Part shown: in pieces, positions 6,353-63,060 of the stretch | Layout: each line of letters begins with the position of its first letter | Numbering within the stretch: the first letter of the stretch is position 1 | Virus record (IMG/VR): IMGVR_UViG_3300045125_000114 | Length of the DNA: 64,000 nucleotides | DNA from: an uncultured virus (IMG/VR IMGVR_UViG_3300045125_000114) | Lineage: Duplodnaviria > Heunggongvirae > Uroviricota > Caudoviricetes | Direction: 5' to 3' (one strand) | Made by a program: the position numbers and the translations under genes | The notes under the pieces: model-generated | Told to the model about the DNA's origin: nothing | Database searches by the model: none | The model's input: only the letters and a program-made list of their open reading frames with translations

Positions 6353-6426
6353 GTCTCGCAGAGCGGTTTCGATCCGCCTTTTCCGGGTTGAAAGCCCAGC
6401 GTCTTAGCCACTAGACGACTGCGAGA
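6353..6426 (-). tRNA. tRNA-Glu(TTC)
   Basis: TCTCGCA/TGCGAGA acceptor stem, D arm GTCT-AGTGGCTA-AGAC, anticodon arm CTGGG-CTTTCAA-CCCGG, T arm with atypical ATCGAAA loop; CCA not encoded. Confidence 0.8.
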
Positions 6427-8448: not shown

Positions 8449-9515
8449 ACACCCCATTGGGTACAATTGTCTGATGTCGAAGACAGACATTTGTACCACG
8501 AGCTACTTTTGACGAAAAAACCCGGCGTGAGCCGGGTTATCCCATTGCCAGAACGATGCCGGTGATGTGTTCTGCGAGCAGTTCCAAATCCCTTTGCGTC
8601 TTGTCGTACTGTTTCCACATCTTGCCGTCGGGCTTGCAGCGTCGTAGCGCTGATTGCACCGACCGGCTTGGAACATCACGTCACGAATGCGGTTGATGTA
8701 CCACTGTTTGCGGAACCACGAGTCGAGTCCGGCGGGCGGCTCGAACCGATCTTTGCCGATGTACTTCTCAATCAGTGCGTCCATCTCGGCGTTGTGGCTC
8801 TGCCAGAACGCAACCGCATCAATTGGTTGGTCGTCGCTCATTTCACACTCCAAAGAAGAAGGCCGGGCACCTTGCGATACCCGGCCCACTCATCCTTCTA
8901 GCACCACACACGGTACAAAAGTCTAACTTTCTTCCTCATCCTTGAGGTCTTCTTCCGTCATCACGTCCACGATGGTGCTTTTCTCAATGTAGCCGCCCTT
9001 GATGTCGCTCACGAGTTCGCCCCTCAAAACCACTTCGTCGGGATCGGTCTTTTCGTCGTGATCGACTACAACCTTCACAAGTGCGTACTTAACGGTTTGC
9101 ATTCTCGTCATGATGTCGTGCCCCTTTCAGTTCTGGGGCCACATCACGATGCCGCCTTGAAGTTCGGATTCGGGCGACCGGGGGCCAGCACAGCGGGCTT
9201 CGTGCCCTGTTCCGGCGGCGGTTGATACAGCGCTTCGCCGATTTGCTTCCGTAGCTCGAAGAGGTGGCGAGCAACTTGGCGACCTTCGTTGGATACCGCT
9301 TGCTCGTTGGCTTCGAGGATGCCCAGCAGTTCTTCGGCCATCTCCTCATTCAGCATGAGCGGAATCACACGCTTGAACCGGCTGACGCTGAAGGCGGGCT
9401 TTGCACCACCGAAGACACCCCGGCGGTCAGTGTTGGGAACGTTCAAGGCTTTCTCCTTACTTGGAAACAGGGTTATCGCATAGACCAGACGGGGGCGAAC
9501 CGTCTGGGTTCAACA

Positions 9516-14687: not shown

Positions 14688-14751
14688 TGGAGCCGCCCGG
14701 AGTCGAACCGGGTTAGCAATTTCGGCTGTGTCGCCACTACACTGCGGCCCC
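14688..14751 (-). ncRNA. Miniature tRNA-Ala-like RNA with truncated anticodon arm
   Basis: GGGGCCG/CGGCTCC-A acceptor (G3:U70, A73), D arm GTGT...ACAC, T arm CCCGG-TTCGACT-CCGGG, only a 3-bp AGC/GCT stem in the anticodon position. Confidence 0.65.
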
Positions 14752-17129
14752 GATTACATCAGTTCGCAACCCGTCCGGCGTTGGGGCGAATCCTCACGTC
14801 TTCGGCGAACATCGGCTTGGCGACCTGAACCGGAATGATTCGGAACTTCCAAGTGTTGCCGGTCTTGCTCTTGACCGTCAGAACGTCACCGACTTGGCCC
14901 TGCGACTTGACCGGAATGGTCACGTCGTCGCCGTTCTCACAGAGGAACGAGTACCCGCCGGGGCGCTCGATCAACTTCCCGGTGTAGTCCATCATGCCGG
15001 AAAACTCGCCGGTGCCCTCACCGCTCAAACCGATCAGCTTGGCCTTCTGCATCGTCGCTCCTTAGTTGGGTTGTGCCGCACAGGGTACAAAAGTTAAAGA
15101 TAAGGGGGCGGGCCAATTGTTGCCGCCCCCTTGTGTTCTTTTCAGCCGTCAGAGAAAGCCTGATGGGAATTGTCGCACCGTTTTCACCCTCACCACGGAT
15201 TTCCATTACGTCGGGGTTAGTGGGGCCACTTCGCAAGGTCGGCCTCGATAACCGTGCCGGGCTTTCCCCGGCACGATTCAAGTCCAGTGCATGGCTTTAC
15301 TATCTCGCTTATCGGCGGGCAGTTCTGAGAATCCCCCGCCCGGTTTGCCCCTTCTTACATTCCGAATTGCAGGCGGAACAGTTCGTCAATGTCGTCCGTG
15401 TCCATGTGCCCGCCCAACTCTGCCGAAATGTCGGCCTTCACACGCTCAAGCACGGACTCCTTGAGCGTATCCATGTGCTGCGCCACCAGAACCGGCAGCG
15501 ACGGGTTCACGGCGATTGTCGCCCACATCTCTTCGCCCACCGACTCACGGAACAGCTTCAACTGCGATGCCGGGTCTTTGGGCAGACCTTCCTTCACACG
15601 CTTCAGAATCGGCTCAAGAGTTTCCAACTGGTACTTCTCGGCATCGACACCGAGCGCCTTCGCCCGTTCCTCCGTCGCCGTTTCCATCTTGTTGAGAAGG
15701 TTGAGAATCTTGATTTGACTCAGTGGGTCCATTTTTACTCCGGTTTGGGTGCTTCGCACATAGACCAGACGGGAGAGGTGCCGATCTGGTGCAAGTTCTT
15801 TACTGATTTTCCAGCCACTCAACAAGCTCGCCGTCTTCCGTCACGCCGGGCACCTTCCAACCACACACCTTGCACTGGAATCGTTCGGTAGTGGCGTCCG
15901 TGATTTCCGGTCGCCGTAAATCACTTCGCCGTCTTCAACAGATACGTTGGTGACAACGTATGCGTCCGATTGGCAGCATTCGAGTTGAGTTCCGCCACAC
16001 GACGGACACTTGAAAACAGGATTTTCCATATGTTTGTTTCCGGTTCGGGGTTGTCGCACATAGACCAGACGGGAGAGGTGCCGTCTGGTGCAAGTTCTTT
16101 TAGCTTTTTTCCGCCTCGGCCGCACCCATCTTCTTGAACGAAGTGGCCGAAGAACCGAACGCCAGCGCCGTGAAGTCCACGTCTTCGCTCTTGAGTAGAT
16201 GAATGCTGCGAAGAAGGTTGGCGTCGGCCAGTTCCCGCATGATGCGAGACAGTTCCCAATACAACAGCACCCGACCGTCTGCCAACACAATCCCCTTGTC
16301 GCCCACTTCGTCAATGATCGGTTCGGACACGTTCATTCCCCCGTAAAATATTGGTCAACGAAACTTTCGGCGAGCCACCGGACAGAAGGAAAATCCTTAC
16401 GCTACGCCAATCCGCTTCTCGTTGTCAGTAGATTTCCGTCACCCGCTGGAACTGACTCGCACTGCGCGTATCTCGGCCGGGTCTTCACAACCCGCTCGCC
16501 TTCGCAACAGTTCTCGCAACTGGTTCTGCGAACCGTGCCGAGAATACCATACAGGTTATCCCAACGGGCAGTCCTTGCGAGCGTCGAACTCGGTCAGAGG
16601 AATGTCAGAAGGAACTACCGACTCGATACGTCGAGCGGCACCAACAAAAATTGCTTCGGTAATCAGAACCAACTGGTTCCGGTTAAAAATCGCAGACATT
16701 AGGACACATTACCCTTGACGGTTTTGACCGTCCTTGTACTCTTTCAGAAGCCTTTCGTACTTCTCTTTGGCCTTGCGGATTCGTTCGTCCACTTTAGCCA
16801 TTGCGGACGGCGTGTTGCACCGCTCCCCGTAACCACGATCAGCAAGCTCTCGCCAACGACGATAAGCCTCTTCCCACGGTTGCATAAGCACTCCTTATGT
16901 TGGTTCCAGCACAAAGACCAGACGGGCACACACCCGTCTGGTGCAACAACTATCCTTCAATTTCGGGAGCTGCCAATGTCTACGTTGGTCACGTCCACCA
17001 GTTCGTCCTTGACCTCGTGCGCCGTCGCCCCGTCCTCTTCAATCCTCGAAACGGCGTCTGCGGCGCTGTCGGCCTCTACAACACATTCGACACGGTAGAT
17101 GCGAGTTTCGTTCACGACGACACGGTATT

Positions 17130-22750: not shown

Positions 22751-23834
22751 ATTTCCACTCCTTATGTGTTTCCGACAATGACCAGACGGGAGTGGCCCCG
22801 TCTGGTACAACATCTTTTTTAGACGGCCTTTTTTGCCGCTTTCGCGCCCGTTCGTACTCCCGACGCTGGCGCTCCCAATCGTACAAATCGTCCTCATCGA
22901 CCGGGTGCCCGATGGCAATTTCCAAACCCCGCTTCTGACGGTTCAGACGGGCCGATTCCGAACGAATGTGCGCCGCCGACGCCTCACCGTCACAAGACAA
23001 GTTCTCTGGCGACAGACCGACAGTAAGCACTCAGCAGCAAGCATCGTACAGTGCGTTGTTGTCGTCAAACGGGTTGTACGTCAACTTCTCACGGGGCACG
23101 GGCGGGGCAGTAACCGGCACCGAACCGAATAGCGGTGCCTTCGGAATTGCCGTCGGGTCGGCCGGTTCCATCAGCGAAAATGGCACCGTCCACATGGTTC
23201 CAATCGGATAGTCCCGAATCGAACCACGATCTTCCAACTGCTTGACCTTCGCCTTCTTCGGGTTGACCTTCACAACCTCACCCAACGTCTTCTCGCCGTG
23301 CTTGCGGCCGAAATAGACCTTCATGCCCTTGACAACGTGTTCCCGTAACATTCCGTATACCTCTGTGGTTAGTGGAGACGCATAGACCAGACGGGAGAAG
23401 ACCCGCCCGGTACATCATTTTGCAATTTCCGCATTACACCAATCCTTCGCCGCCTCAGCGGTCGGAAAAGAATGAAGGTGCTTCTGCCCCCGGTACACCG
23501 TCCAACGATTTTTGACGTAGAAATCATGTGAAGTGAAATCGCCCGGCCTGTTCTCCACAATACGGAAAGGCGACTTGTACCAAACTTCGGTTTTAATCCA
23601 CTCGGCTTCTTGTTTCGTCTTCGCCATTGTTGTCCCTTATTGTTGGGGGTTCGCATAGACCAGACGGGAGAAAGCCCGCCCGGTACAACATCACTTGCAA
23701 TTTTTCCGCCACACACCGGTGACAGGGTACAAATGCCTAACCCAACTCGTCAGACATTTGTACTTTATGTAATTTGGTGAAATTATTGAAAAAATATCCC
23801 TTGTTACTACAATAGACAAAAGAGGGATATATTT

Positions 23835-24297
23835 ATGCGTACTTGGAGTGAGGATCAATTGAAGCAAGCGGTTGCAACATCGACAACCCTTACGGATTGC
23901 GTGCGAGCGTTAGGTCTTTCTGTTGGTGGTGCCGCCCGGAAAAGCATAACTCGCCAAGTCGAGAAGTTCGGCCTAGATACTTCACATTGGCTAGGTAAAC
24001 GCAAGCCGCACAAGCCAGACCAAATTGTTCTTGTCAAAGGGAGCGAGTACCGCAATCTCAGTGGGTTGAAAACTCGCTTGCTAAATGCGGGGCATCTTGA
24101 ATACCGTTGCTACCGCTGCGGCCTCATTGAATGGATGAACGAACCTATAACGCTCCAGATTCACCATAGAAACGGCATCAGCAATGATAACCGTTTGGTG
24201 AATCTGGAACTGCTTTGCCTAACTGTCATTCACAAACCGACAATTACGCCGGTCGCAACGTCAAGCGGCCTTCGCCATCGCCGCACTTCCCTTGTGA
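23835..24297 (+). CDS. HNH endonuclease (one apparent frameshift)
   Basis: CYRCG...LQIHHRNG...NNRLxNL-like segment then LC(PNCHSQT) after a single-base shift; the only clear plus-strand gene in the array. Confidence 0.8.
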
Positions 24298-25355
24298 ACA
24301 ATCCCCCGCTTGTCCAACTCAGTTAGTCCCGCTTGAGTGATAGTATAGCCTTTGTTGGTACACAGTACAGTACGCCGCCGAATCGTCCGTGTCCGTCAGA
24401 AGCCACGGCATAATGAAACGCTCTACTTCTTCCGCCTTCTTCCCTGCGACGTTCACAATGCGATTCTTCGCTACCGGCCCTTGACCCACGCCCGGAGAAT
24501 CGCCAAGTGCGTTTCGTGCATACCGTGTTCGTCAATGCCTTCATCAGCCGCTACACGGCGAGCTACTTCCGCCCACTCGCCGCCTTCCATCTGATGAACT
24601 AGCTTCACATAACGGGCAAACTCCAACGCCTTCCGAGGAACACGACTGTTGTAATGCGCCACCAACTTACAAACATCATCCGAGAAGTCGGGATTAGCCA
24701 ATTGAACGATCTTGGCAATGTCAGACTTCGGGAGATACTTGAGGTTTACCGGCGAAAACCGAGTGCGGAAAGCATCGAACAGCTTGCCCTCATCCGTAGT
24801 CGCCAACATCCAACAAGCGTTAAAGCAATTGATCGTCTTGCCGGATTCCGTTACCATCGTTGCGTCAGAGTGTTCCGTAGCCTTCAACAGCCCGTCAACA
24901 ACGCTCTGGCTCAGTGCGTGAACTTCATCGAAGAACACAACACACGGCGGCAAAACGTAATGCTTCGGCTTCACAACCTCTACCAGCGGAACGTGCGCTT
25001 CCTTCAACACACGCTCGATAAGGGCGAAAAGCCCGTCCATATCCTTGACCGACTTCGGAGAGACTTCCACAAACGGCAGTTCGACTACCGTAGCGAACAT
25101 CTTCGCCAACGTGGTCTTACCCGCCGACGCCGGGCCGTAAATGGCAAACGCCAAATCACGGCACAAGTGGTCAGGCTTGCCGAGAGCATCGAAAGCCGCC
25201 GCTTGCAACTTACGAATCGCCTTGTCGTTGCCAATGAAGCGGCTAAACGCACACTTCCCGTTCTCCCGACTCACCGCCGAACGCCGCTCATCAAGCGACG
25301 GAATCGGCAGAAAGTCCGGGTGCTTCGGGCCGAAAAACACCTTGTATCGCTGCAT
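24261..25355 (-). CDS. ruvB: RuvB-like Holliday junction branch-migration AAA+ ATPase (frameshift near C-terminus)
   Basis: FIGN, Walker A GPASAGKTTLA, Walker B FFDEVHAL, LATT..GKL..AFRTRF, VPRKA, GIDEHG, then a GPV...PWL winged-helix-like tail in the shifted frame. Confidence 0.75.
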
Positions 25356-25424
25356 CAGTTTCTCCCTAATGGGCAAAGACCAGACGGGGCAAACCCCGGC
25401 CGGTGCAACTTCTTCAGCAAAAAA

Positions 25425-25478
25425 TGGAGCATGACGGAGTTGAACCGTCCCGATCAGCCGCCCCCGGCGGAATGCCCC
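25425..25478 (-). ncRNA. 54-nt tRNA-Ala-like minihelix RNA
   Basis: GGGGCAT/ATGCTCC-A acceptor (G3:U70, A73), T arm GACGG-TTCAACT-CCGTC, one CCGCC/GGCGG hairpin instead of D and anticodon arms. Confidence 0.6.
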
Positions 25479-25620
25479 GCACAGCCCGGTTCGGGGTACA
25501 AATGTCTGACTCCACCATCAGCCTTTTGTACCACAACGCCAATTCGCTTTACAAACGCCTTCACACGGAGTAACATGAGCTTACCCTGTGGATTGGGCGG
25601 GCGAGCGTCGCAACTCCCCA

Positions 25621-25652
25621 AAACACCCGGTAGCTCATGCTACCGGGTGTTT
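25621..25652. terminator. Bidirectional intrinsic terminator
   Basis: AAACACCCGGTAGC-TCAT-GCTACCGGGTGTTT perfect hairpin with A/T runs on both sides. Confidence 0.75.
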
Positions 25653-37012: not shown

Positions 37013-40000
37013 TTAGTATTCTGCCGTCAAGTTCGCAGTGACCGAAACGAGGGCGTTAGTAGTCCAGTTGTTGGCCGAATTGCCAAAGCCCGTACCTTTT
37101 GTACTGGTTCCGGTCAGAGACACCGTGCCAGCACTTCCTGCGTTGACCGAATAAGAAGCACCCGCTTCAAGAGAAGGTGTTGTTCTCATTTCAGAAGGAA
37201 AACCGATAACGCCTCTGCCGTACATATTGTCACCGTTTTGAGCAACGCCGATGGCTTGGCCTGAATAAGTCATGTAATATCTGAAACACCGGTGCATTTC
37301 GTAATCGAAGGCAACTGGTGTATAGCGTGCCCCGGTCGCTCCGAGTGTTATAGCAACCTGACTCAAGTAGAACGTGTTGCTCGTGCTGTCCGTTCCGTTG
37401 ACTTGATTCGACGTTGAGAAAAAGTTTCCAGTTGTCCAAGACCCGGCCGTGGTTTGGTAAGTGCTTCCCCCGGCAATAGTGAAATACACTCTCAGTCCGA
37501 CGCCGTTGGTAATTTGCCAAACGCCATCGGTCAGCACCGGAGAAGCTGCTATAGTTACGGTTTTGTACTCCCATGTGTTTGAAACGCTGATGCTGTACTC
37601 TGCAACATAGCTCCTGTCGTTGCCAGAGTTGACGAACCCCACACAGTACGTTCCGGTTTTGAACGCACGAACCCAGAACGAAAGTGTGAACTGTTGCTGA
37701 GTTATGGCTTGGAAATCGTAGCCTTCTATGATGTATCTAATCGCAGTGTAATCATTGGCGGTAATAGACGCATCGGCCGTTGTGACCGCCAATTTGTAAG
37801 AATATAGACTGTAATTGCCAGATTGAGCTACAGTCGGGACTACTGTATTTTCTTGCGTTGCCGACAGGACGGCGGCACCCGAACAGATAACCGCCCACCG
37901 GTCTGCGGCGTAAGTTATCGCTCCGGTGATACCAGTAAAGCTCGTTCCCCGCTGCCAAATGTTGAAGTTGCCATTGATGATAATGTTGTTGATGGTTCCT
38001 GTAACTTTGGCAGCATTTACGTTGTCAATTGTCCAAACCGTACCCGAACTCGAAACAGTGATGTCACCATAATCTGCATCGGCTACGGTGGTGCCGCTCG
38101 CAGTGAGTGTCGTTCCGCTTACACTGAGTCCGGTTCCTGCCGTGAGCCACGTTACTTGTCCGGCACTATCGTCCCAGAACAGGATACGGTCGGCATTAGG
38201 GTCTGCAAGTGATGCCCCGGTGCCACCGTAGGCCAATCCAATTGCCGTTCCGTTCCATGTGCCGCTGGTGATCGTACCGACCGTAGCGATGTCGGTGCCG
38301 ATGAGTTTGGAGGCTGCAATTGAGCCTGCCAACATGCTGTTGGTTACAACGCCTGCGGCAATTGTTGTTGCAAAGCTACCCGTACCACTTCCCGTGACGT
38401 TCCCGGTCAAAGTGATCGTTTGGTCGCCGGTGTTGGTGCCGCTGCTTGTCCCGCTGATTGTGGCATCGCCGGACAAGGTGAGAACACGATCTGCATCACC
38501 GGTTGTGATAGTCAGAGTGTGGTCTGCTGTCAGGTTGGACCCGACAACGAGGCCGAGGGTGTGACTGGCGTTCGTGTCCAGTATTTTTACGCCACTGGAA
38601 TTTACAAATGTTTGAGCCGCACTCCAACTGTTGGCCCCGTCCAAAAGTGGAACATTGGTCCCGCTTGTGCCCGTGTTTTGTACTGCTGCCGTGCCAAGAC
38701 CAAGTGTAGTTCTCTGTGCTGTAGAGTCGGCATCATCGAGAATGGCCTCTACCGGCTGCCGTACAGGTAATTTCCTCTACAGTGGTGCCCGTTGCGTCAT
38801 TTCCTAGCAATACGTTTGCTGAAACGGCTTGCATCTTGGCAAAGGTTACAGAACCAGCCGCAATTGTTGTTGCAAAGCTACCCGTACCACTTCCCGTGAC
38901 ATCACCGGTGAGGGTGATCGTTTGGTCGCCGGTGTTGGTGCCGCTGCTTGTCCCGCTGATTGTAGCATCGCCGGACAAGGTAAGAACACGATCTGCATCA
39001 CCTGTTGTGATGGTGAGGAGTGTGGTCTGCTGTCAGGTTGGACCCGACAACTAGGCCGAGGGTGTGGCTTAGCGTTCGTATCCAGTATCTTCACGCCAGA
39101 ACTGTTTACAAATGTCTGTGCCGCACTCCAACTGTTCGCCCCCATCCAACAGTGGAACATTGGTGCCGCTTGTGCCCGTGTTTTGTACTGCTGCCGTGCC
39201 AAGACCAAGTGTAGTTCTCTGATCCCCTGCTGTGGCATCATCGAGAATGGCTCTACCGGCTGCTGTACAGGTAATTTCTTCTACAGTGGTGCCCGTTGCG
39301 TCGTTGCCGAGCAATATGTTTGCTGAAACGGCTTGCATCTTGGCAAAGGTTACAACGCCGGGGTCAATTGTCCAAACCGTGCCCGAACTCGAAACAGTGA
39401 TGTCGCCATAGTCACCATCAGACAAAGCGGCACCACTTGCGGTCAATGTCGTTCCTGTAATATTCAGGCCACTCCCCGCCGTGAGCCACGTTACTTGTCC
39501 GGCACTATCGTCCCAGAACAGGATGCGGTCGGCGTTCGGGTCGGCCAGTGCCGCACCGGTTCCACCATAGCCTAAAGCAATTGCAGTTCCGGTCCAAGTG
39601 CCACTGGTGATTGTACCGACAGTTGCGATGTCGGTCCCAACGAGTTTGGATGCTGCAATTGATCCTGCCAACATGCTGTTGGTTACAACACCGGCTGCAA
39701 TTGTTGTAGCAAAGCTACCCGTACCGCTGCCCGTGACATTTCCGGTAAGAGTGATGGTTTGATCGCCGGTGTTAGTGCCGCTGATTGTGGCATCGCCGGA
39801 AAGTGTCAACACCCGGCTTGCATCGCCCGTTGTGATGGTGAGAGTACGAGTTGCTGTCAGGTCGGACCCGACAACGAGGCCGAGGGTGTGGCTTGCGTTT
39901 GTGTCCAGTATCTTTACGCCAGAACTGTTTGCAAACGTCTGTGCCGCACTCTCAACTGTTTGCACCGTCCAGCAACGGAACGGTATTTCCACTCGGTGCC

Positions 40001-41346
40001 CGTATCCTTTATTGCCGTTGTGCCGAGGCCGAGGTTGCTACGGGCCGTTACGGGGTTTATGAGTTCGCTGAGATTGTTGGCGGCATTGCGGAATGAGCCA
40101 ACGTTTTGGGTGGCTATACTGCCCAATCCGAGGTTACTTCGGGCGGTTGTTGTGTTGGTTAGTTCGCTGAGATTGTTGGCGGGCTGTAGGAAGTCTGCCG
40201 CATCCATCGTAGCCAAGTCGCCCAATCCGAGGTTGTTCCGGGCGGCTGACGCACTGCCGAGGTCGTTCAGGTTGTTGGCGGCTTGCAGGAAGAACGTAAC
40301 GTCCTTGATTGCTGCCCCGCCCAATCCGAGGTTGTTTCGGGCGGCTGTCAGAACTACCGAGGTCGTTCAGATTGTTGGCGGCTTGTAGGAAGAACGTAGT
40401 GTCTTTGACGGCCGCTGTACCGAGGCCGAGGTTGTTTCTTGAAGCCGATGCACTGGCAACGTCGTTGAGGTTATTTGCCGATTGGAGGAAGAAAGCAGTA
40501 TTTTTTGTAGACGCAGTACCAAGTCCGGTAATGTCGGTATTGGGTATGGTGGTAGTTGCGAAAACGTTGCTCCCGTCACCTTGAACGTAGCCGACCAAAT
40601 CCGTATCGGTGTCTTCGCTAATGAAGGTTGGGATACTAGATGCGGTCCACTCTTGGGTGTCGGAGTGCCACTGTAGGAACTGGCCGTTGGCCGGTGCGTC
40701 CATTGCAATGTCGTAACCTTGCAATTTGTTTGCGTTCCATACGGCTTCTGTGTTGCCCACTTGAGCGGCGGTAACTCTGTGCGGGTTGTCCAGATCGTCT
40801 ATGTGTTCACGCCACACGGAGTCTTCAAATCCGAGGGCGGTAACGCCGCCGCCGCCCGAAACGGGTCGTTTTTCGTCGTCGTATCTCTTGATTACTGGTG
40901 TGAAACCGACCGGGATTACGCCGCCGTTGAATTTGTTTTGCGAGTAACCGTTGACTATTGAAGTCCTGACGAGCGACTGTTCGCTTTCCGGCACCACGAC
41001 TTCGACGCCTTTGGGCGGCTTTCTCGGCCTTTCCAGAGCGGTCGAATTAGCGCCGCCAGAAAGCTTGACTTTGCTGGTAGCTTTTTGCGTTGAGAGTGCG
41101 GGGGCCAGAGCGTTTTTGATGGTTTTTACGGTAACGCCATCATTTGTAAGCTTCTTGGTGACAGATTTTGTCTGTTGCGGGGCTACTTTGGCAACCCCTT
41201 TTGGTTCTTTTCTGGGTCTGGGCGTGGTAGAAACAACGACGCCGCCCTGATCCTGACGAACGGCTCCTTTTGGGAGTCGAGCCGCCGGGAATCAGGGCAC
41301 CTTTGACCGTTGTGGTCTTTATTCCGTCATTGGTTGTCTGTTGCAT
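37013..41346 (-). CDS. Long repeat-rich tail fibre / receptor-binding protein (several frameshifts; may be more than one gene)
   Basis: G/T/S/A-rich; NNLxxLxxxxxARxNLGLG repeats; duplicated SGTNTGDQTITLTG and ADPNADRILFWDDSAG blocks; C-terminal IINGNFNIWQRG...ADRW...RCFRYY domain. Confidence 0.8.
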
Positions 41347-63023: not shown

Positions 63024-63060
63024 TGTAGACCAGACGGGTCGGGCAAACGCCGGTGCAACA
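63024..63060 (-). repeat. Outlying motif A copy (degenerate distal arm)
   Basis: TAGACCAGACGGG...CCGGTGCAACA about 30 nt upstream of the helicase start. Confidence 0.8.

Follow-up and report, generated by a model that had tools for sequence, protein, structure and literature searches.

An anticodon-less, alanine-type tRNA-like RNA of 54 nucleotides (nt) is encoded on the minus strand at positions 25425-25478 of a 64,000-nt stretch of DNA from an uncultured virus (Caudoviricetes; IMG/VR record IMGVR_UViG_3300045125_000114), which was analysed as a whole and is referred to here as the window. The element, in which an acceptor stem and a T arm are joined by one short hairpin, is confirmed as real in the form in which it is observed, and a 64-nt sister RNA lies in the same window. 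Because it has neither an anticodon nor a tag reading frame, the RNA cannot decode. It is a smaller, differently built version of the known but obscure transfer-messenger RNA (tmRNA) composed of the tRNA-like domain (TLD) only, a kind that is not new, since a tag-less TLD-only tmRNA has already been published for mycobacteriophage DS6A. Our preferred reading, with a probability of roughly 0.45, is that it is an expressed alanine-acceptor RNA of the TLD-only kind that would act on the trans-translation system. The two RNAs and the parts of the smaller one are as follows.

25425-25478, minus strand: 54-nt anticodon-less alanine-type tRNA-like RNA (5' end 25478, 3' end 25425), supported by its fold, the scanner, shuffles and covariance model R1 (89.9 bits on itself)
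25478-25472: 5' strand of the acceptor stem
about 25469-25457: hairpin
25449-25433: T arm
25432-25426: 3' strand of the acceptor stem
25425: discriminator base A73
14688-14751, minus strand: 64-nt sister RNA, supported by its fold (z -2.68), the scanner, its match with R1 and a comparison with DS6A

Structure, chance expectation and family tests

In the 5' to 3' direction, the 54-nt RNA reads GGGGCAU-UCCGCCGGGGGCGGCUGAUCGG-GACGG-UUCAACU-CCGUC-AUGCUCC-A. All seven pairs of the acceptor stem GGGGCAU/AUGCUCC are formed (G1:C72, G2:C71, G3:U70, G4:C69, C5:G68, A6:U67, and U7:A66) and the discriminator A73 follows directly, with the alanine determinants G3:U70, A73, G2:C71, and G4:C69 all present. 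The T arm, GACGG-UUCAACU-CCGUC, is composed of a 5-bp stem and a 7-nt loop that is closed by G53:C61 and matches the tRNA consensus. The D and anticodon arms are replaced by a single short G+C hairpin, CCGCC-GGG-GGCGG (or GCCG-GGGG-CGGC), which is separated from the acceptor stem by 1-2 nt and from the T arm by a linker of 7-8 nt. Both the minimum free energy and the centroid folds consist of acceptor stem, short hairpin, and T arm, at -23.9 kcal/mol. An earlier reading made from the letters alone (the sequence-only reading) had described this anatomy and position, together with the flanking motifs B and A treated below, correctly; its interpretation is borne out in part.

A scanner requiring the T loop NTCRANN, a T stem paired 5/5, an acceptor stem paired 7/7, and 2-70/75 nt between them was applied to both strands of the window. 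In these 128 kb of strand, it returned only three matches, namely, the 54-nt RNA, the 64-nt RNA (14688-14751, minus strand), and a tRNA-Glu (6354-6425, minus strand). Across 300 dinucleotide shuffles, 0.36 matches per window were obtained with any acceptor identity and 0.017 with G3:U70 and A73, never more than one at a time, compared with the two alanine-type elements of the real window, which are both on the gene strand and both intergenic. The word GGTTCRANTCC occurs three times against 0.41 expected, the third occurrence (30446) being stemless and within coding sequence. Were the T arm and 3' acceptor strand alone real, the probability that a random 5' strand matches within 70 nt would be approximately 3% per element, as calculated from pairing probabilities.

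The 64-nt RNA has the acceptor GGGGCCG/CGGCUCC with G3:U70 and A73, and the T arm CCCGG-UUCGACU-CCGGG. The kinship of the two RNAs, claimed in the sequence-only reading, was borne out by R1, a covariance model for which the 54-nt RNA was the only input; its sole convincing match elsewhere in the window is the 64-nt RNA (E 0.016). The same reading held that the stems differ in sequence while pairing, G3:U70, and A73 are kept, and this stands for four of the 12 pairs, which are changed on both sides without any being broken (pairs 6 and 7 of the acceptor; 49:65 and 50:64 of the T stem), while acceptor pairs 1-5 and A73 are the same in both RNAs. An alignment of the window RNAs by MAFFT was structurally wrong and was not used. 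The 64-nt RNA starts 7 nt past the stop codon of the gene at 14759-15052, with a copy of motif A immediately after it; the gene (15052-14759) and the RNA make up one transcription unit headed by a copy of motif B.

ARAGORN and Rfam at gathering scores call the tRNA-Glu as the sole element in the window. At E<=10, there was no tRNA-clan match at 25425-25478 (RF00005 has a gathering score of 29 bits) and no match of RF00023 to the 54-nt RNA (gathering score 47 bits). For comparison, RF00023 gives 43.2 bits to the DS6A RNA (located at JN698994 28478-28560), 34.5 bits to the phage candidate L112, 33.2 bits to the look-alike G001:123760, and 20-39 bits to real phage tRNA-Ala genes. The only Rfam model that aligns to 25426-25478 at E<=10 is mascRNA (RF01684), with 17.1 bits against a cut-off of 42.5. 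The 64-nt RNA has weak matches to the tRNA-Sec and permuted-tmRNA models. In the permuted-tmRNA match (RF04321, 14611-14712, 15.7 bits), the partner of the T arm is the next gene's ribosome-binding site.

Among the features of tRNAs, the 54-nt RNA has the 7-bp acceptor stem, the 5-bp T stem, and the T loop UUCRANY with G53:C61. A cloverleaf with an anticodon arm (5-bp stem, 7-nt loop, U33) is not formed in the 22 nt between acceptor and T arm, and the anticodon-arm rule, which is positive for 155 of 163 named tRNAs, finds none. Among the features of tmRNAs, the alanine acceptor identity (G3:U70, A73, G2:C71, and G4:C69) is present; a D-loop analogue with a P2 helix abutting the T arm is absent, as are the tag reading frame and pseudoknots, for which 54 nt are too few and which TLD-only forms lack as well. 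The acceptor strands stand in normal order within the 54 nt, not in that of a permuted two-piece tmRNA, and no partner piece was found in the window by ARAGORN or by the standard and permuted tmRNA models of Rfam at gathering score. By these families' own tests, the element is thus outside both the tRNA and the tmRNA families. With detectors and permuted models silent, it therefore cannot be called as a tRNA or as a tmRNA, and it is not a piece of a split tmRNA, an identification that the sequence-only reading had named as one that would refute it.

The 54-nt RNA is retained among environmental strains of the phage, which is found in biofilter or wastewater habitats. Contigs from four environmental sequencing runs, each of a different study, with DNA 98-99% identical to the window, were compared over 1001 bases; run X6, which is labelled RNA-Seq, was judged to be probably DNA. 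The RNA is present in all four, whole in three and from 25434 onward in one (X8). Its sole strain change, plus-strand 25433 G>A, turns C46 into U, by which the pair G30-C46 becomes G-U; the change is compatible with the structure and indicates no extra constraint.

Flanking motifs and window context

The flanks of the 54-nt RNA, the neighbouring gene, and the motif B copy upstream of the sister RNA are as follows.

25419-25424, minus strand: T6 run directly past A73, a possible terminator tail or U-rich RNase Z-type 3' trailer
25493-25513, minus strand: motif B, promoter-like, core CATTTGTACC at 25495-25504, ending 16 nt before G1
25345-25412, minus strand: motif A copy between the 54-nt RNA and the AAA gene; the motif is a repeat with a hairpin, promoter-like or for processing
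24264-25355, minus strand: RuvB-like AAA+ ATPase gene downstream of the 54-nt RNA, open frame 25355-24471, homology to 24264
15084-15093, minus strand: motif B copy heading the gene 15052-14759 and the 64-nt RNA, found by motif search

With motif B 16 nt upstream and the T6 run downstream, the 54-nt RNA looks like a self-contained unit. The T6 run begins 1 nt past the acceptor helix, which closes a branched structure, and is not listed by a simple terminator scan. The consensus of motif B, GTTAGRCATTTGTACCC, has 19 matches in the window against 3.5 expected. Many of its minus-strand copies stand 25-35 nt before a ribosome-binding site and ATG, and most related loci have its core TGTACC ahead of their AAA gene; on both grounds, motif B may be read as a clade-wide promoter. 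Four copies have an inverted plus-strand partner approximately 28 nt off (25495-25532, 1565-1602, 8460-8497, and 23726-23764), and these pairs could be divergent promoters or a 10-bp hairpin. Downstream of the plus-strand copy at 25523-25532 stands a strong terminator-like hairpin on the same strand (25621-25652), which would allow a short divergent transcript. In the strains, a stretch of 100-130 nt upstream of motif B (25626/25656-25757) is replaced by 4 or 18 bases (runs X8 and X1), and this strain-variable segment lies at the head of the array.

Motif A has 37 copies, of which 36 lie at 418-25388, the copy at 25345-25412 being the most upstream, and one at 63027. Its minus-strand pattern is TTGCAC-CAGACGGG-N4-6-CCCGTCTGG-TCTATG, with a conserved 9-bp hairpin approximately 35-40 nt ahead of the start codons of small minus-strand genes, and it may serve as a promoter specific to the phage or as a hairpin for RNA processing. 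Nothing related to the pattern was found in IMG/VR, GTDB genomes, or Joint Genome Institute (JGI) metagenome contigs; two metagenome matches (L001 and L002) were rejected, having the palindrome alone in common with it. Tandems of motif B and motif A without an RNA between them occur at 8460 and 23726. Very early expression of the 54-nt RNA, proposed in the sequence-only reading, could be argued from its position only.

The N-terminus of the AAA protein, MQxxKVFFG, is conserved among 23 aligned homologues, and the region of the 54-nt RNA is therefore noncoding with respect to this gene. The gene aligns to a homologue of 364 amino acids over 25355-24264 in a single frame apart from approximately 45 codons. 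At about 24340-24485 (within 24264-24485), it is out of frame with four stops, the frame being restored at the conserved C-terminus; this stretch could stem from a pair of compensating indels, from an error of assembly, or from damage to the gene.

The window is phage DNA with tail-fibre families at 37013-40997, a metallophosphatase, and the RuvB-like AAA+ ATPase, and its genes are almost all small, orphan, and on the minus strand. The AAA protein is encoded on a contig of 180,833 nt, and the window belongs to a huge phage that is novel. A nucleotide search of the phage collection with the window gave no match. Recoding of TGA, considered because frames lengthen without this stop, was rejected, since the code-4 frames overlap in all six frames, which points to an effect of G+C content. 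Between 26000 and 34000, G+C falls to approximately 49-52%, with a plus-strand GC skew of +0.2 to +0.36 and AT skew of -0.2 to -0.33; as the open frames of this region nevertheless keep to the minus strand, their messages would be C- and A-rich, and DUF4419 is the only family match among them. The tail-fibre-like genes contain large diverged direct repeats, which reach 300 nt in length and 64-96% identity, together with five tandem units of 99 nt (repeat regions 38024-39965 and 40021-40537). The tRNA-Glu(UUC) at 6353-6425 (minus strand) has the unusual T loop AUCGAAA and no encoded CCA, and its type is common to relatives (L004 3254-3327 and 3527-3600; G001 76076-76147). The bases CU follow the discriminator in nearly all tRNAs of the relative G001, in the window tRNA-Glu, and in the 64-nt RNA.

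Related phages and anticodon-less look-alikes

The AAA protein has more than 326 homologues, the closest of which (P0002-P0004) are 77-78% identical to it. A profile search with this family gave 21 IMG/VR loci (contigs up to 572 kb) and one contig of a metagenome-assembled genome, and a search of IMG/VR with the single protein gave no match. A covariance model of the two window RNAs, which the sequence-only reading had proposed to build, was made as R2; it found no counterpart in loci L003-L024 or records G001-G005, a match at L004:2201-2269 being rejected as it lies inside a coding frame, and it ranks the TLD-only RNA of DS6A first in that phage's own genome (18.6 bits).

The whole records of seven relatives were scanned, and the huge phages among the relatives carry up to 58 tRNA genes (52-58), many of them odd. 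The tabulation covered 2.16 Mb with 189 ARAGORN tRNAs, nine of which are tRNA-Ala. The scanner matched 163 named tRNAs, of which 155 have an anticodon arm and six have G3:U70, together with 35 unnamed sequences, of which 19 have no anticodon arm, with G3:U70 in seven of the 19. The look-alikes described individually are as follows.

G001:123760-123836: alanine-type, no anticodon arm, long arm capped by GCAA
G002:55504-55588: alanine-type, no anticodon arm, an extra hairpin replacing the anticodon loop
G002:498731-498788: alanine-type, no anticodon arm, 58 nt, G73
G008:82583-82657: alanine-type, no anticodon arm
L004:1450-1520: non-alanine, tetraloop GGGA for the anticodon loop, immediately past the stop of the AAA gene, with T5 and the promoter motif behind it
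G002:176835-176905: non-alanine, tetraloop GGGA for the anticodon loop
G008:25504-25568: non-alanine, tetraloop UAUA for the anticodon loop

Two of the alanine-type elements, G001:123760 and G008:82583, have T arm and acceptor type in common, with non-homologous flanks. The three non-alanine look-alikes are intergenic and not called by ARAGORN, and the L004 copy, the only one scanned with Rfam, has no Rfam match. Charging with alanine cannot account for L004:1450, G002:176835, or G008:25504, since they are not of alanine type. Two CUA-anticodon tRNAs of G001 (182011-182084 and 182708-182778) are labelled tRNA-Pyl by ARAGORN and are possible amber suppressors; the window's open frames show no stop-codon-specific gain.

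A degenerate pattern scan of 17 of the 64 parts of IMG/VR gave 116 instances, 110 with a 5/5 T stem. The matches L088 and L167 were rejected as part of a real tmRNA and of a real tRNA, respectively. Candidate short alanine-type RNAs are seen in L112/L158, L122, L130, L161, L177, and L187, which are leads and not proof; for instance, L112/L158 is 59 nt long with CCA and lies between primase and terminase genes in an unrelated phage. The contigs of L122, L161, L130, and L112 have no protein in common with the window and no SmpB, and no integrase stands beside L122, L161, or L112. Anticodon-less alanine-type RNAs similar to the two of the family supposed in the sequence-only reading occur in related huge phages and in unrelated phage contigs. 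Since standard tRNA and tmRNA finders miss such elements, phage annotations under-count them.

Longer alanine-type RNAs and SmpB genes are also present in the clade.

G006 and G007: full tmRNAs (RF00023) of 353 and 363 nt
G008:305082-305221: short tmRNA-like RNA, 140 nt, above the RF00023 cut-off
G010:7846-7980: short tmRNA-like RNA, 135 nt, above the RF00023 cut-off, TGTACC 11 nt upstream
G008:24758-24884: short tmRNA-like RNA, 127 nt
G001:245484-245903 and G002:107580-107993: SmpB genes, 192 and 187 bits

An example of a tag frame is GTVNYAMAA in the tmRNA of G007. The short forms (127-140 nt; loci L047 and L048) have G3:U70, the TLD D-loop motif, and few hairpins, and are not called by ARAGORN. 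SmpB was found in two of nine related records (G001 and G002), one of which is rated 100% complete; of the large records, these are the two whose AAA proteins show the highest identity. Neither record contains a full-length tmRNA; their best matches to the tmRNA model are tRNA-Ala genes and odd alanine-type RNAs. No SmpB on the window's 180,833-nt contig was among the best 120 of 3429 SmpB matches.

Possible roles and comparison with known systems

An acceptor stem and T arm with G3:U70 and A73 suffice for alanylation, and alanyl-tRNA synthetase (AlaRS) needs acceptor determinants only. We infer the steps from transcription to function as follows. The RNA would be transcribed from the motif B promoter 16 nt upstream, RNase P would trim a short leader at G1, and the transcript would end at the U6 run or be trimmed back to A73. 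The host CCA-adding enzyme would attach CCA, and host AlaRS, reading the acceptor stem only, would charge the RNA with alanine. The charged RNA would then most probably act on ribosome rescue in the manner reported for TLD-only RNAs, by competing with the host tmRNA for SmpB, EF-Tu, or AlaRS; alternatively, it may work together with a phage SmpB.

A number of observations weigh against such an alanine-acceptor role. The fold stability of the 54-nt RNA is ordinary (z -1.40, 19 of 200 shuffles being equally stable), and the RNA is below the threshold of every tRNA and tmRNA model. It lacks the TLD D-loop motif (GG..UCGAC) between acceptor and helix, which is found as GGUCGAC in DS6A and as GGUUUCGAC and GGUAUCGAC in the 135-140-nt forms and is partially matched by GUGGCGAC in the 64-nt sister. 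No SmpB, AlaRS, or CCA-adding enzyme was seen among the 67 open reading frames of the window, and no RNA counterpart was found upstream of the AAA gene in the 22 related loci. No CCA is encoded, A73 being followed by UUUUUU, although this is no argument against maturation, since the window tRNA-Glu and almost every tRNA of G001 lack an encoded CCA too. In the IMG/VR pattern scan, 10 of the 110 instances with a 5/5 T stem have a 7/7 acceptor compared with approximately 3.9 by chance (5' GGGGC internal), which is not clearly above chance; L088 and L167 are two of these 10.

For the claim of the sequence-only reading that alanine identity is under selection and not in decay, the evidence is suggestive. 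Of the 15 anticodon-less look-alikes whose loop fits TTCRANN, 6 carry G3:U70, versus 6 of 163 named tRNAs (Fisher p 9e-5), but against the random-pair rate of 1/6, the excess reaches just p 0.03. The look-alike sets were pre-selected for perfect pairing and therefore give no unbiased covariation. On the negative side of this claim are also the non-alanine look-alikes, which fill similar intergenic slots in relatives, and the strains, where constraint on the RNA is no higher than on its flanks (one change in 54 nt versus 15 in approximately 1000 nt).

The main rival explanation, possible if less probable, is that the element is a tRNA-shaped processing signal, or t-element, cut by RNase P at its 5' end and by RNase Z or a similar enzyme after A73. 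Plant mitochondrial t-elements, described as directing RNase P and RNase Z cleavage at mRNA ends, provide the precedent (PMC1920247). The 54-nt copy would then set the 5' end of the AAA mRNA started at motif B and the 14751 copy the 3' end of the upstream mRNA, with alanine features inherited from an ancestral tRNA-Ala or tmRNA. Such a role is consistent with the placement of the 14751 RNA, 7 nt past a stop codon, in the same unit, and immediately before the next promoter-like repeat, and with that of the 54-nt RNA in a leader between tandem motifs B and A, of which there are also examples with no RNA between them (8460 and 23726). Look-alikes without G3:U70 in the same types of slot (e.g., L004:1450-1520), where real tRNAs occur too, and the below-cut-off mascRNA alignment as the best Rfam match point the same way. 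The processing signal explains less well why all alanine determinants are retained in both window copies despite divergence elsewhere in the stems, why G3:U70 is over-represented among anticodon-less look-alikes, and why the 54-nt RNA, with its own promoter-like motif and U run, looks like a separate unit. The two readings are compatible, as an element that is cut out could be charged too. That the element is instead a decaying remnant of a tRNA-Ala or tmRNA, its middle deleted and without present function, is doubtful. Remnants are to be expected in a clade whose members carry 52-58 tRNA genes, many of them odd, and the absence of a counterpart at the same place in 22 related loci, the silence of ARAGORN and Rfam, the modest folding z-score, and the out-of-frame stretch of the neighbouring AAA gene would all suit decay. 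Against it, both window copies have all 12 stem pairs and a canonical T loop intact, the second copy retains the alanine features though four pairs are changed on both sides, the strains of four runs retain the element with a single structure-neutral change, and the promoter-like motif and T run frame it neatly.

It is considerably less probable that the RNA serves as a decoy or sponge for a host factor reading the acceptor/T-arm half, such as a defence nuclease, a tRNA-modifying toxin, AlaRS, or EF-Tu, and would so protect phage translation. The evidence for this role is indirect, namely, mimicry of the top half of a tRNA without decoding and a position among small orphan genes typical of host-takeover regions, but no defence or counter-defence gene was identified nearby, and the sequence does not point to any particular host target. 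That complementary G+C-rich segments have come together around a T-loop-like word by chance is very improbable. The z-score of -1.40 and the rate of any-identity matches in shuffled windows would leave room for it, whereas the 0.017 alanine-type elements per shuffled window contrast with the two present, both intergenic and on the gene strand, and the sister RNA is recovered by the model from the 54-nt RNA.

If the alanine-acceptor RNA is indeed made and charged, it would be much smaller than, and differently built from, the single published phage TLD-only tmRNA, would provide an easy means of studying phage interference with, or short cuts in, bacterial ribosome rescue, and could explain why some huge phages have SmpB without a full tmRNA. 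A bolder and rather unlikely proposal is that the clade holds a graded series of alanine-acceptor RNAs (tmRNAs of approximately 360 nt, forms of 127-140 nt, and forms of 54-64 nt), the smallest of which act as SmpB partners or competitors. In that event, the phage could switch host rescue from a tag-and-degrade to a tag-less mode, or block it, and no natural AlaRS substrate with a biological role would be smaller than the 54-nt RNA. If the element is a cutting signal, it would represent tRNA punctuation of phage messages, which is little documented as well.

Among known systems, full-length phage tmRNAs share the acceptor identity and T arm with the 54-nt RNA and are found in the same phage clade, and huge phages are described as carrying tmRNAs together with SmpB (PMC7162821); they are 353-363 nt long with pseudoknots and a tag frame, which the 54-nt RNA does not have. 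Tag-less tmRNAs are described from jakobid and oomycete mitochondria and from two Mallomonadaceae plastids (approximately 65 bp), and the retention of organellar tmRNAs without a coding sequence together with SmpB is there taken to indicate a tag-free function (PMC11915505). Like the 54-nt RNA, they consist of hardly more than the alanine-accepting tRNA-like domain. They are mostly permuted and covered by RF02544, which has no match in the window, and their SmpB partner is known, whereas none is seen in the 64-kb window. The t-elements and mascRNA resemble it as tRNA-like folds without a working anticodon that stand beside mRNA ends and are cut by RNase P and RNase Z; they have no specific alanine identity, and their role is known from mapped transcript ends, while the window RNA is known from sequence alone.

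The closest counterpart is the tmRNA of DS6A, which the tmRNA database papers list as 'TLD only'; a similar molecule is said there to inhibit tmRNA strongly, perhaps by titrating SmpB (PMC4131195; PMC11915505), and a TLD fragment with SmpB is described as supporting poly-alanine synthesis in vitro (PMC3929946). Like the 54-nt RNA, the DS6A RNA is phage-encoded, has G3:U70, A73, and a canonical T arm, and lacks an anticodon, a tag frame, and an encoded CCA, with CUA after its A73; it shares the acceptor GGGGCCG/CGGCUCC and the first nine bases with the 64-nt RNA of the window. It differs in its length of approximately 80 nt and in having the GGUCGAC D-loop motif and a P2 helix. The 54-nt RNA has no D-loop motif, carries its hairpin on the opposite side of the linker, and has 1-2 nt at the D-loop position. 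DS6A itself is a 60-kb temperate siphovirus, to which the window phage, of at least 180 kb, is unrelated. The primary paper behind the TLD-only tmRNA is reportedly that of Mao et al. from 2009. In the literature searched on phage minihelices and anticodon-less tRNA-like RNAs, no further phage-encoded example was found.

Synthetic minihelix-Ala and microhelix-Ala were reportedly established as AlaRS substrates by Francklyn and Schimmel in 1989. The 54-nt RNA contains exactly the acceptor and T-arm module of minihelix-Ala; the latter is a laboratory construct with CCA, whereas the former is a natural gene with an extra hairpin and an unencoded CCA and, if made and charged, would be the natural counterpart of the laboratory molecule.

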